Assembly (NCBI GenBank): GCA_951406725.2
Contig: OX597814.1
Span: forward strand, 47,492,001 to 47,556,000
Length of the DNA stretch: 64,000 nt
DNA from: Octopus vulgaris
Taxonomy: Eukaryota
Direction: 5' to 3'
This document shows, piece by piece, positions 30,491-35,451 of the stretch. The translations under genes and the position numbers were made by a program. The notes under the pieces are model-generated. The model was not told the origin of the DNA, did not search any database, and was given only the letters and a program-made list of their open reading frames with translations. Every line of letters begins with the position of its first letter. Position 1 is the stretch's first letter.

Positions 30491-31089
30491 GCGGATGGTA
30501 ATATATTAAGGAGAACAAATGACAGCATTTCTAAAATAGTACCACACACTTCATCTTCTTATGGGCGATCATTGAATTGATAATTCATTCAATAATAGTC
30601 AACAATGTTTTTGTAGGTCGACGGGAATAAATGGATCTCCATCGGTTTCGGCGAGGAGGATTCAGTTGTTCGATCAACTGAACTACCTGCAAAGTAAATT
30701 AGTGTCTGACTGACTGAGCATTCCAAAGTCACGTGTAACCATTTACATAACTATCTGGCAGAATCAATGTGACACAGTACATGTCAAGTTTGCGTCTTCG
30801 AATTACAACAGGGTTTTTCACAGATTTCGTCGACCTAATTCGACTCATAAGGCATGGGTTGTTCTGGGTAAATAGCAAGGCTCTTGCTCAAAATACCGCG
30901 CACTTTAACCGAACACAGGAATGTCGCGATTAGGAGCGAAGTTCTTAACCAACTTAATAAAACAAAAACAAAACACTACTTCTTTTTGAAAACACCTTTC
31001 GTTGTTTTTCAAAAATAGAAGGCTCATAAGCAAAAAAGAGAAAGAAAACCTTTAAAATAAGTATACCTTAAAAAAAAAGGTAAAAATAA

Positions 31090-32821: not shown

Positions 32822-32952
32822 AAAACTTATTTGGAGAAATAAGAAAGTGACGCGAGGCGTTCAATCATATAATAACAATTTAACAAATAAAACATATGCA
32901 TACATACATACATACATATATGTACATATCTACATCTATATGTATATATACA

Positions 32953-32990
<38 letters not shown>

Positions 32991-33405
32991 AGTACAGGAC
33001 ACCACAAATAAACGTAGAACACAACGAGAAACGAAAACATAAAAACAAACAAGGAAACGGACTTTTTTTAACAACGAAAAAACAGAGTATAAGACAAACA
33101 ATACAAGGAATATTCCCCTTCATCAGCTGCCCCTGGTTCGACTCAATGTATGTTTCGAAGGTAAGGGCAGAACACGATCCAGCCGAAGCAATCCTTCCTG
33201 CAAAATGAATTAAATAAAATTCTTTTGCAGAGGGGTCCTTCGAAACACGCATTGAGTCGAACCAGGGGCAGCTGATGAAGGGGAATATTCCTTGTATTGT
33301 TTGTCTTATACTCTGTATTTCGTTGTTAAAAAAGTCTGTTTCCTTGTTTCTTTTTATGTTTTCGTTTCTCGTTGTGTTCTACGTTTATTTGTGGTGTCCT
33401 GTACT

Positions 33406-33463
<58 letters not shown>

Positions 33464-33537
33464 TGTATATATATAGATGTAGATATGTACATATATGTAT
33501 GTATGCATATGTTTTATTTGTTAAATTGTTATTATAT
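32820..33537. mobile_element. Foldback element in (TA)n carrying a permuted HHR-like motif
   Basis: 32867-33161 is the reverse complement of 33237-33537; both arms carry GAAA...CTGATGA in non-canonical order. Confidence 0.88.
33115..33187 (-). ncRNA. Candidate pseudoknotted (reverse-order) hammerhead ribozyme
   Basis: Minus strand CGTG-TT-CTGCCCTT-A-CCTTC-GAAA-CATAC (CACGC in the other arm)-ATTGAGTCGAACC-AGGGGCAG-CTGATGA-AGGGG; 8-bp stem I; stem III ACACG/CGTGT. Confidence 0.5.
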
Positions 33538-33552
33538 ATATATATATATAAT

Positions 33553-33900
33553 TGTATATTGTTGTATTTAGGGATGGTCATGTTGCCAGTTAAGCCAATA
33601 AAAACACACGCACTATATATTTAGTGTTCATTTGCTTCAGCTTTATTTCATATTAATTGTATTTTGGCCAGAGTTCTTTCGTCACACTTCTGTGGCCTCA
33701 TCAGTGGTCCTTTGCTTTCTTCTTTCTTTTTTGTGTGTCTTTCCTTACTAATGATCAGCCATTTTGTATTACTAGGAATACTCTAGCCAAAATACAATTT
33801 ATATAAAATAAAGCTGAAGCAAATGAACACCAAATATATAGTGCGTGTGTTTTTATTGGCTAAACTGGCAACATGACCATCCCCAAATACAACAATATCT
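33553..33900. mobile_element. Second foldback element with a type I HHR
   Basis: 33555-33674 is complementary to 33780-33898; starts at (TA)n. Confidence 0.85.
33666..33710 (-). ncRNA. Type I hammerhead ribozyme (slightly decayed)
   Basis: Minus strand GGACCA-CTGATGA-GGCCAC AGAA GTGTGAC-GAAA-GAAC-TC-TGGCC; CUC site. Confidence 0.7.
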
Positions 33901-35030: not shown

Positions 35031-35240
35031 TTACTCTTTTACTTGTTTCAGTCATGTGACTGTGCCATGCTGGAGCACCACCTTTAGTCGAGCAAATCGA
35101 CCCCAGAGCTTATTCTTTGTAAGCCTAGTACTTATTCTATCGGGGTCTTTTACTGAACCGCTAAGTTACAGGGACGTAAACACATCAGGATCAGTCGTCA
35201 ATCAAGCGATGTTGGGGGGACAAACACGGACACACATACG

Positions 35241-35284
<44 letters not shown>

Positions 35285-35451
35285 TATATATACATACATA
35301 CACGACGGTCTTCCAGTTTCTGTCAATCCAAATCCACTCACAAGGCTTTGGTCGGCCCGAAGCTATTATAGAAGACACTTGCTCAAGGTGCCACGCAGTG
35401 GGACTGAACCTGGGACCATGTTGTTGGTAAGCAAGCTACTTAGCCACTCCT
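35031..35451 (-). mobile_element. Family-B SINE, full length
   Basis: Reverse complement of the 8955 family, including GTGCCACGCAGTGGGACTGAACC. Confidence 0.9.

Follow-up and report, generated by a model that had tools for sequence, protein, structure and literature searches.

A short segment of the window (the whole 64,000-nucleotide stretch of Octopus vulgaris DNA that was analyzed) raises the question of whether the three strands of a hammerhead, when they follow each other in reversed order, can form a ribozyme, and in which fold. A direct read-out of the minus strand agrees with the original prediction that all three strands are present in this order, at the positions given below, and the order is conserved in the family. 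The prediction also held that this order is none of the types I, II and III; it has already been described and validated in vitro as type SGC, i.e., cleavage site-GAAA-CUGAnGA, so far only in metatranscriptomes (HRIMA-1; Eckert et al. 2023, PMC10085705; here and below, published work is cited from the accessible parts of the sources). The fold to which the present analysis leads is more unusual than the one first proposed. The window contains two truncated copies, inverted relative to each other, of a non-coding Penelope-like repeat, the RNA of which is predicted to adopt a four-strand hammerhead fold that likely cuts itself after GUU, between positions 33171 and 33170 (with a probability of roughly 0.78, judged from sequence comparison). 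This hammerhead is predicted to be opened between A9 and G10.1, inside block C of the Eckert scheme, and to be a circular permutation of the reverse-order (SGC or CSG) forms. The features, listed in the 5' to 3' order of the RNA after the two repeat copies, are as follows.

32873..33235, minus strand: 5'-truncated non-coding copy of the Penelope-like repeat (family A1) in a TA-rich microsatellite; the left end is approximate
33237..33523, plus strand: inverted second copy, more truncated, which begins at the stem II 3' strand and is without the cleavage-site strand
33231..33235, minus strand: P5a, CCCCU, 5' strand of the closing helix, pairing with the strand right after A9
33198..33230, minus strand: hairpin P0, CUGCAAAA...UUUUGCAG, between P5a and the stem II strand (MFE -11.5 kcal/mol)
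33193..33197, minus strand: stem II 5' strand GAAGG, its first G being G10.1; perfect complement of CCUUC
33182..33191, minus strand: P4a, 1 nt after the stem II 5' strand, in the place of the 'I' helix of type-SGC ribozymes
33176-33171, minus strand: cleavage-site strand CGUGU-U, i.e., stem III strand CGUGU and H17 (U); predicted cut 33171/33170
33170-33163, minus strand: CUGCCCUU, directly after the predicted cut, followed by A and then CCUUC
33165..33170, minus strand: stem I strand CUGCCC; both-side changes in 5 of 6 pairs
33164-33162, minus strand: 3-nt linker UUA between the stem I strand and CCUUC
33157..33161, minus strand: stem II 3' strand CCUUC (C11.1 = 33157), from family alignments and covariation
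33156-33153, minus strand: GAAA, which precedes CAUAC and then a linker
33149..33156, minus strand: G12-A13-A14, then the stem III strand ACAUA, a decayed form of the family allele ACACG
33133..33142, minus strand: P4b, GUCGAACCAG, directly 5' of the stem I strand
33134-33127, minus strand: AGGGGCAG, immediately 5' of CUGAUGA
33120..33132, minus strand: stem I strand GGGCAG and core C3-A9, CUGAUGA (33126-33120)
33115..33119, minus strand: P5b, AGGGG, pairing with 33235-33231; the stem II strand of the original prediction

The two copies form an inverted repeat with the arms 33065-33161/33237-33333 and 32873-33068/33328-33523. The right arm, on the plus strand from 33237, opens with CCUUC-GAAA and has CACGC but is without the cleavage-site strand, so that the sequence agrees with the suggestion that this arm was truncated at the inversion point and lost the first strand. 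The left arm has CAUAC instead of CACGC, which leaves stem III with one G-U pair and one mismatch; this had been attributed to CpG decay, and indeed, ACACG is the allele in 27 of the 36 family copies. With stem III weakened, the window copy is probably a relic that is slow or dead. An Rfam search of the window detects no ribozyme family, and the published SGC descriptors would miss the family, as had been anticipated for standard descriptors. Folded in isolation, the 101-nt stretch has a minimum-energy structure that does not stand out (z -0.95), as would be expected of a pseudoknotted RNA. An unrelated second inverted pair adjoins the locus (window 33556-33674 / 33780-33898, with 119-nt arms that are 95% complementary and 105 nt apart), and a common short interspersed repeat, present in most fetched loci, occupies window positions 30877-30914, 35121-35158 and 35372-35409.

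The repeat is young: the 146-nt stretch has 2005 first-look candidates, i.e., about 2000 candidate copies, in the 2.8-Gb genome; the 40 candidates that were scored are 96-98% identical, the window copy itself excepted. Copies of this family, A1, have about 300-450 nt in common downstream and variable lengths upstream, and occur both as direct tandems and with inverted partners. The sister family A2 is younger (1638 candidates, with 40 of 41 matches 100% identical), and its unit of 837 nt is non-coding, with only low-complexity open frames. In 30 of 30 A2 loci, the end falls 254-258 nt past the predicted cut; the 5' ends vary, reaching beyond 3 units. In terms of target-primed reverse transcription, a fixed 3' end together with ragged 5' ends implies that the CUGAUGA strand is the RNA strand. 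A non-coding tandem unit of less than about 1 kb with one ribozyme per unit is a retrozyme-like trait of A2; A1 forms partial tandems.

Within this genome, no fewer than eight repeat families of distinct sequence carry the reversed strand order. Three genome-wide searches used site-GAAA-CUGAnGA descriptors with first stem I pairs that differ from those of the initial families. They yielded 2708, 55 and 846 matches, compared with 187, 12 and 75, respectively, for reversed-pattern controls. The first 30 loci of each of these searches, together with loci from other searches, yielded 11 family alignments of 3-36 copies each, namely A1 (the window family), A2 and A3, which constitute lineage A, and B, C, D, E, E2, E3, F and N (the latter with 1585 candidates, at about 85% identity). 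The core, the G16.2-C15.2 pair and the pair class at the first one or two positions of stem I were fixed by the search patterns, which left the remainder free. Matches without stems were set aside as chance occurrences or other forms (e.g., L127, L151, L152, L154, L157, L158, L163-L165, L168-L170, L173, L174, L177, L179 and L195, along with the C30 satellite L213), and family G (four decayed copies) and the single copy L216, which fit by eye, stand outside the scored set. The satellite (G000:C30:6322000-6326000) has a 103-bp unit with GAAAC and CUGAUGA in each and no stems discernible by eye. An Rfam search of eight family loci likewise gives no ribozyme match at E<=1, the hits of the two Rfam searches being microsatellite-driven miRNA matches and one 5S-like insertion; a 5S rRNA-like sequence (RF00001, 60 bits; L143:1633-1752, minus strand) directly follows a family C element. 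Family C (L121-L147, around 1440-1640) also has extra core-like pieces, i.e., an upstream CUGAAGA with GAAA and, downstream, a hairpin after which come GAAAC and CUGACGA; in most copies a G-run overwrites the stem II strand. A CUGAnGA-site-GAAA search gave 9666 matches vs 1232 for its control and brought up canonical type I hammerheads with a long loop 2 as well as family C; the CSG form is absent among the 25 loci scored from these matches. Several of these canonical type I hammerheads are abundant (L300-L322, G000:C1), with an unusually long loop 2 (40-55 nt), and are often found as inverted pairs.

Across the 11 families, U16.1-A15.1, CGAAAC and CUGAnGA are kept, in part imposed by the searches; H17 is C, A or U, never G, and stems I and III are flush with the core and take many pair types around it. 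The 36 copies of the window family have GUH at the predicted cut in every case, CGAAAC in 33 and CUGAnGA in 30, in line with the cut after GUU that had been proposed, and the proposed registers of stems I and III are borne out by compensatory changes between families. In stem III, U16.1-A15.1 and the G-C pair are invariant and the outer three pairs covary. Among 20 lineage A copies, 94.6% of cells pair, with 50 double changes vs 19 in shuffles, and none of 500 shuffles reaches this covariation; slid controls pair at 39-49%. Of the eight unpaired cells at the first stem I pair, seven belong to copies chosen by a pattern demanding a pyrimidine at this position. Because related sequences can beat such shuffles without any structure, the comparison across families carries more weight. 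The covariation, the 4.6- to 14-fold excess over controls and the lack of GAAA within 40 nt after CUGAnGA in all 36 copies (a check for a canonical-order partner that the original prediction had called for) together refute a chance arrangement within a decayed canonical Penelope hammerhead, an explanation that has next to no probability left even though the window copy is decayed, its local fold is ordinary and canonical type I hammerheads abound in this genome.

The remaining question is how the strands are joined, and it hinges on stem II. This stem had been drawn as GGGG/CUUC and regarded as weak. In the corrected fold, however, CCUUC pairs with GAAGG from upstream, and AGGGG has CCCCU at 33235-33231 as its partner, with stacking energies of -8.7 and -12.0 kcal/mol, respectively, vs -4.1 kcal/mol for CUUC/GGGG. 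The stem as first drawn is very likely wrong, and comparison of the families makes it very likely that stem II is formed by the upstream strand, not by the strand after CUGAnGA; the GAAGG/CCUUC pairing, first considered a competing fold, is stem II in the corrected fold. Stem I, proposed to have 8 bp with a 1-nt linker, more likely has 5-6 bp with a linker of 3-4 nt since the next helix includes the flank of the AGGGGCAG strand. That next helix, the 'extra helix' of the original prediction, does exist and corresponds to the conserved helix that connects stem I with stem II in type SGC; its proposed role as a switch is not its main one. In lineage A, an alternative is available in which G8-A9-A-G-G pairs with CCUUC, an inactive fold.

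An upstream stem II partner of 4-6 bp that begins with G and lies 20-27 nt 5' of the cut is found in 9 of the 11 families, and it was absent from the search patterns. The pairs are as follows.

A1-A3: GAAGG/CCUUC
B: GGCCGG/CCGGCC
D: GGGGCC/GGCCCC
E: GCACC/GGUGC
E2: GUGCU/GGCAC
F: GCCC/GGGC
N: GACACC/GGUGUC

The G10.1-C11.1 pair is G-C in all nine families with a clear upstream partner, and family B contains an internal compensatory change, from GGCCGG/CCGGCC to GGCUGG/UCAGCC. In a swap test over nine families, with C and E3 kept as misses, own partners form a mean of 4.6 Watson-Crick pairs vs 2.25 for swapped ones, and 6 of 200000 random re-pairings equal the own partners. Families C and E3 show no clean upstream partner at the column level (a G-run in C, a mismatch or bulge in E3); four natural family C copies keep a G-C-rich upstream strand. 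Descriptor scoring of single copies finds an upstream partner of at least 5 bp in 40/48 copies of lineage A, 9/9 of N, 5/7 of D, 2/11 of B and 0/13 of C; as such scoring is noisy in old families, the family alignments were used.

The other helices occupy equally regular places. P5 (4-12 bp) is present in all 11 families and starts 0-2 nt after A9 (for A2, the automatic pick is a competing register); in 20 lineage A copies, 98% of P5a cells are paired. Hairpin P0 ends at G10.1 and has an MFE of -3.9 to -11.7 in 8 of the 11 families, whereas the automatic pick gives a weak hairpin for A2, E2 and E3; in the window, P0 is flush at both ends, and a U-A to C-G change occurs in 7 of 20 lineage A copies. 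P4 is found at a fixed place in all 11 families, starting one nucleotide after the stem II strand, with its partner just 5' of stem I, and 51 of 52 lineage copies form 5-7 of its 7 pairs, compensatory variants included.

These observations bear on the possibility of an ordinary type-SGC ribozyme in which stem II is GGGG/CUUC, right after CUGAUGA and an extra A, while GAAGG from upstream competes and inhibits. SGC and Penelope hammerheads commonly have an additional nucleotide behind A9, and lineage A can form the contiguous stem (4 bp, two of them G-U); as the stem II and P5 strands hardly vary within this lineage, the window family by itself does not distinguish a split fold from a contiguous one. 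In the other eight families, however, the strand after A9 offers at most 2 bp, so that no stem II is found within 0-2 nt of CUGAnGA and block C is interrupted (lineage A taken alone being ambiguous in this respect), and the contiguous stem is likewise impossible in the published Naiad consensuses that were read (see below). Such a fold would also forgo about 16 kcal/mol of stacking relative to GAAGG/CCUUC with CCCCU/AGGGG and would leave P4 without its usual neighbour. All told, an ordinary SGC fold appears unlikely.

In the preferred four-strand fold, the RNA would run, from the 5' end, through P5a, hairpin P0, the stem II strand with G10.1, one nucleotide, P4a, the block of stem III, GUH with the cut, and stem I, the 3-nt linker, the block of stem II, GAAA and stem III, P4b, the block of stem I and CUGAnGA, and P5b at the 3' end. 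Helix P5 would clamp the two RNA ends, with hairpin P0 between P5 and helix II, so that P5 and P0 together would replace the A9-G10.1 bond; P4 and the 3-nt linker would hold stems I and II side by side. In hammerhead chemistry, G12 is the base and the 2'-OH of G8 the acid (PMC11300833), and the same chemistry would be expected to cut after H17. Both products would remain paired through helices II, III, P4 and P5, with the 5' product held by four helices, which would favour re-ligation; a unit-length RNA released from a tandem transcript could then re-form the ribozyme out of its two ends and circularise. A Penelope-like reverse transcriptase might copy the circle into (TA)n sites, starting at a fixed 3' point, and produce arrays that are anchored at their 3' ends and exceed one unit. 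In agreement with this, nine of 25 A2 insertions, chosen on their 3' sequence, pass the cut site twice, and the 44 nt after the cut show a 3.8-fold enrichment of A2 5' ends (7/25, P=0.007, with the 44-nt interval chosen after seeing the data and one locus-edge case dropped). These ends lie 7-35 nt past the cut, none exactly there, which was counted against the model; template jumping by a Penelope-type enzyme combined with stalling at the fold would account equally well for both the double passage and the enrichment. A unit-length 'goes back' joint appears in RNA-like and DNA-like contigs alike and is explained by tandem DNA; contigs from four sequencing runs, compared with L074:640-2250, show no pile-up of ends and are uninformative on expression or cleavage.

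Folding may be difficult given that the split form requires all three inter-block links at once, whereas the tested forms have two. The conserved fold might need a partner, like many hammerheads of Penelope elements, with cleavage confined to dimers, to pairs of tandem units or to RNA assisted by a protein. In favour of this, the metazoan Penelope hammerheads act as dimers and cleave slowly in vitro (PMC4209133), the units are tandem, and three links may strain a monomer. Yet all helices are 4-12 bp long, non-palindromic and complete inside one copy, and the HERO-like carriers described below have a single ribozyme copy after the ORF, which makes dependence on a partner improbable. Somewhat less probable still is a hammerhead-derived non-catalytic signal that binds the reverse transcriptase or protects the 3' end. 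As the elements extend 50-260 nt past the cut, a permanent cut would separate off the very 3' end that is copied first, but a signal with a purely structural role could do without the catalytic nucleotides and the exclusion of G at H17 that are kept across families otherwise sharing little (this conservation is partly imposed by the search patterns in the octopus families but not in the Naiad consensuses). Self-cleavage by the four-strand fold thus remains the preferred reading.

The carriers of the split fold belong to more than one kind of element. Naiads, including Naiad_Ovul, were reported to lack canonical hammerheads, some having a 'core' or 'half core' 35-50 nt apart, and the authors concluded that these elements spread without canonical hammerheads (Craig et al. 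2021, PMC8557442). In the supplement of that paper, a screen by short sequence terms among roughly 55 entries, read by eye, finds at least eight consensuses that end in the split fold: Naiad_Obim, Naiad_Ovul and Naiad_EuTe; three near-identical coral entries, Naiad_Aacu, Naiad_Anas and the entry before; an entry flanked by the box-jelly and nematode records; and the opening entry, which the file order assigns to a ctenophore and which is the weakest case with a stem I of only about 2 bp. At least eight entries of the nematode part have, by eye, the unsplit CSG order with a joining helix. The bivalve and hemichordate entries examined show neither form, so that neither is universal in Naiads. 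The hemichordate 3' ends in the same supplement have a different, G+C-rich common motif with GAAAC and no CUGAnGA, possibly another ribozyme.

In the octopus genome, family N matches by eye the 3' end of Naiad_Obim and Naiad_Ovul and has the fold and stem I of the window family; the N loci are short 3' remnants with no Naiad ORF. The window family has (TA)n targets, tandem and inverted insertions and no canonical hammerhead, traits that are common to other Penelope-like clades, and neither sequence homology to Naiad nor an ORF was detected, so that its membership in Naiad is not established. No ORF with an N-terminal GIY-YIG domain and a C-terminal RT is attached to the family A loci, and no autonomous partner of family A was found among two young Penelope-like ORF families near a split-ribozyme copy. 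Both candidates were rejected: the 1.5 kb that follow the stop are free of the split motif in either family, and sequence in common with family A is confined to nested insertions. The first of them (L211:7870-9378, L260-L279; ORFs to 842 aa, 19747 candidates) has a very long 3' UTR that carries a canonical type I hammerhead close to the end. Some 1.3 kb downstream of the stop, a further hammerhead-like patch, composed of a hairpin, GUC, GAAAC and CUGACAA, matches none of the forms tested. In 20 of 20 loci of the second family (L211:3479-5068, L280-L299; GIY-YIG E 9e-5, 8391 candidates), the sense strand is without CUGAnGA for 1.5 kb past the stop.

Upstream of families C, D, F and G lie ORF remnants that encode a C-terminal CCHC motif and an 'RPD..ELTV.WE' nuclease, and a family C RT piece scores against RVT_1 at 1e-9. 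From these motifs, we take the carriers of the four families to be HERO-like. In such elements (L255, G000:C1:7745500-7752500, as well as L131-L133, L126, L160, L183 and L214), the split hammerhead is in the 3' UTR, 50-100 nt before the element end, next to remnants of RT, CCHC and a restriction-like nuclease. An octopus repeat annotation lists Hero families, and ribozymes go unmentioned in its accessible text (PMC13282606).

Taken together, these data suggest with fair, although lesser, confidence than for the locus itself that the four-strand hammerhead split at A9/G10.1 is a seventh natural topology, active in self-cleavage and re-ligation and present in thousands of copies in animal genomes; that, along with the unsplit CSG form, it represents the ribozymes that many Naiads seemed to lack (the split form in cephalopods, corals and a crustacean and the CSG form in nematodes); and that it is common to the 3' UTRs of unrelated, HERO-like non-LTR retrotransposons. 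For the split form by itself, identity with the ribozyme that Naiads were reported to lack is likely, as far as the consensuses indicate. Hammerheads in Penelope-like elements and retrozymes, and the reverse-order hammerheads of Eckert et al., are already known. Searches of the text of openly available papers found no A9/G10.1 split, no reverse-order forms in animal genomes and no link to Naiad. A 2026 paper mentions hammerhead variants 'with additional helices' (PMC13725137), and the accessible part of one of its sources, PMC10162972, has no text on such variants; an earlier drawing of the split form may exist in print. If the RNA does cleave, the rule that CUGAnGA and stem II are an uninterruptible block, on which the count of six orders is based (PMC10085705), would be broken, and A9/G10.1 would offer a natural insertion point for helices. 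Reverse-order hammerheads would then move from anonymous metatranscriptome contigs to named animal retrotransposons with thousands of copies, and the open point of the Naiad paper on hammerhead 'cores' and 'half cores' (PMC8557442) would have a testable answer. The occurrence of split and CSG forms in one clade of tandem-forming elements suggests that permutations arise by re-opening the repeat elsewhere.

Comparison with known hammerheads places the split form close to the reversed-order types. In the Eckert scheme, the blocks S, G and C are assumed to be uninterruptible, from which six possible orders follow, with at most 1-2 nt inserted at A9/G10.1; the descriptors demand CUGAUGAG or CUGAUGAUG and then stem II, and would therefore miss split forms (PMC10085705). 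Among the forms compared (PK and the Eckert types, as described in the accessible sources), none is a validated hammerhead with A9 and G10.1 on different strands. With the type I hammerheads of Penelope-like elements and retrozymes (PMC4209133; bioRxiv 10.64898/2026.07.22.740005, where only type I is reported for these elements), the split form shares the location near the 3' end of Penelope-like repeats, the tandem non-coding units of less than 1 kb and the inverted truncated partners. The cyclic order, however, is the opposite: the type I succession of CUGAnGA, helix II, GAAA and cleavage site, also a hallmark of retrozymes, is not that of the family, type I descriptors do not find the split form, and stem III is complete and non-palindromic in one copy. 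In the PK hammerhead (Zhan et al. 2024, PMC11300833), a remote strand likewise builds most of helix II around an intact core, but there, G10.1-C11.1 directly follows A9 and the connectivity differs. Type CSG, represented by two metagenome sequences (PMC10085705), has the same reversed cycle and a joining helix followed by the cleavage-site block; it is open between the GAAA block and stem I, whereas the split form is closed there and open at A9/G10.1. Type SGC shares with the split form a 5-bp stem II that begins with G, followed by one purine and then the joining helix; in contrast to type SGC, the split form has its stem II and joining-helix strands at the 5' end, a CUGAnGA that is not followed by stem II, the additional helices P5 and P0, and chromosomal repeats of animals as its host.
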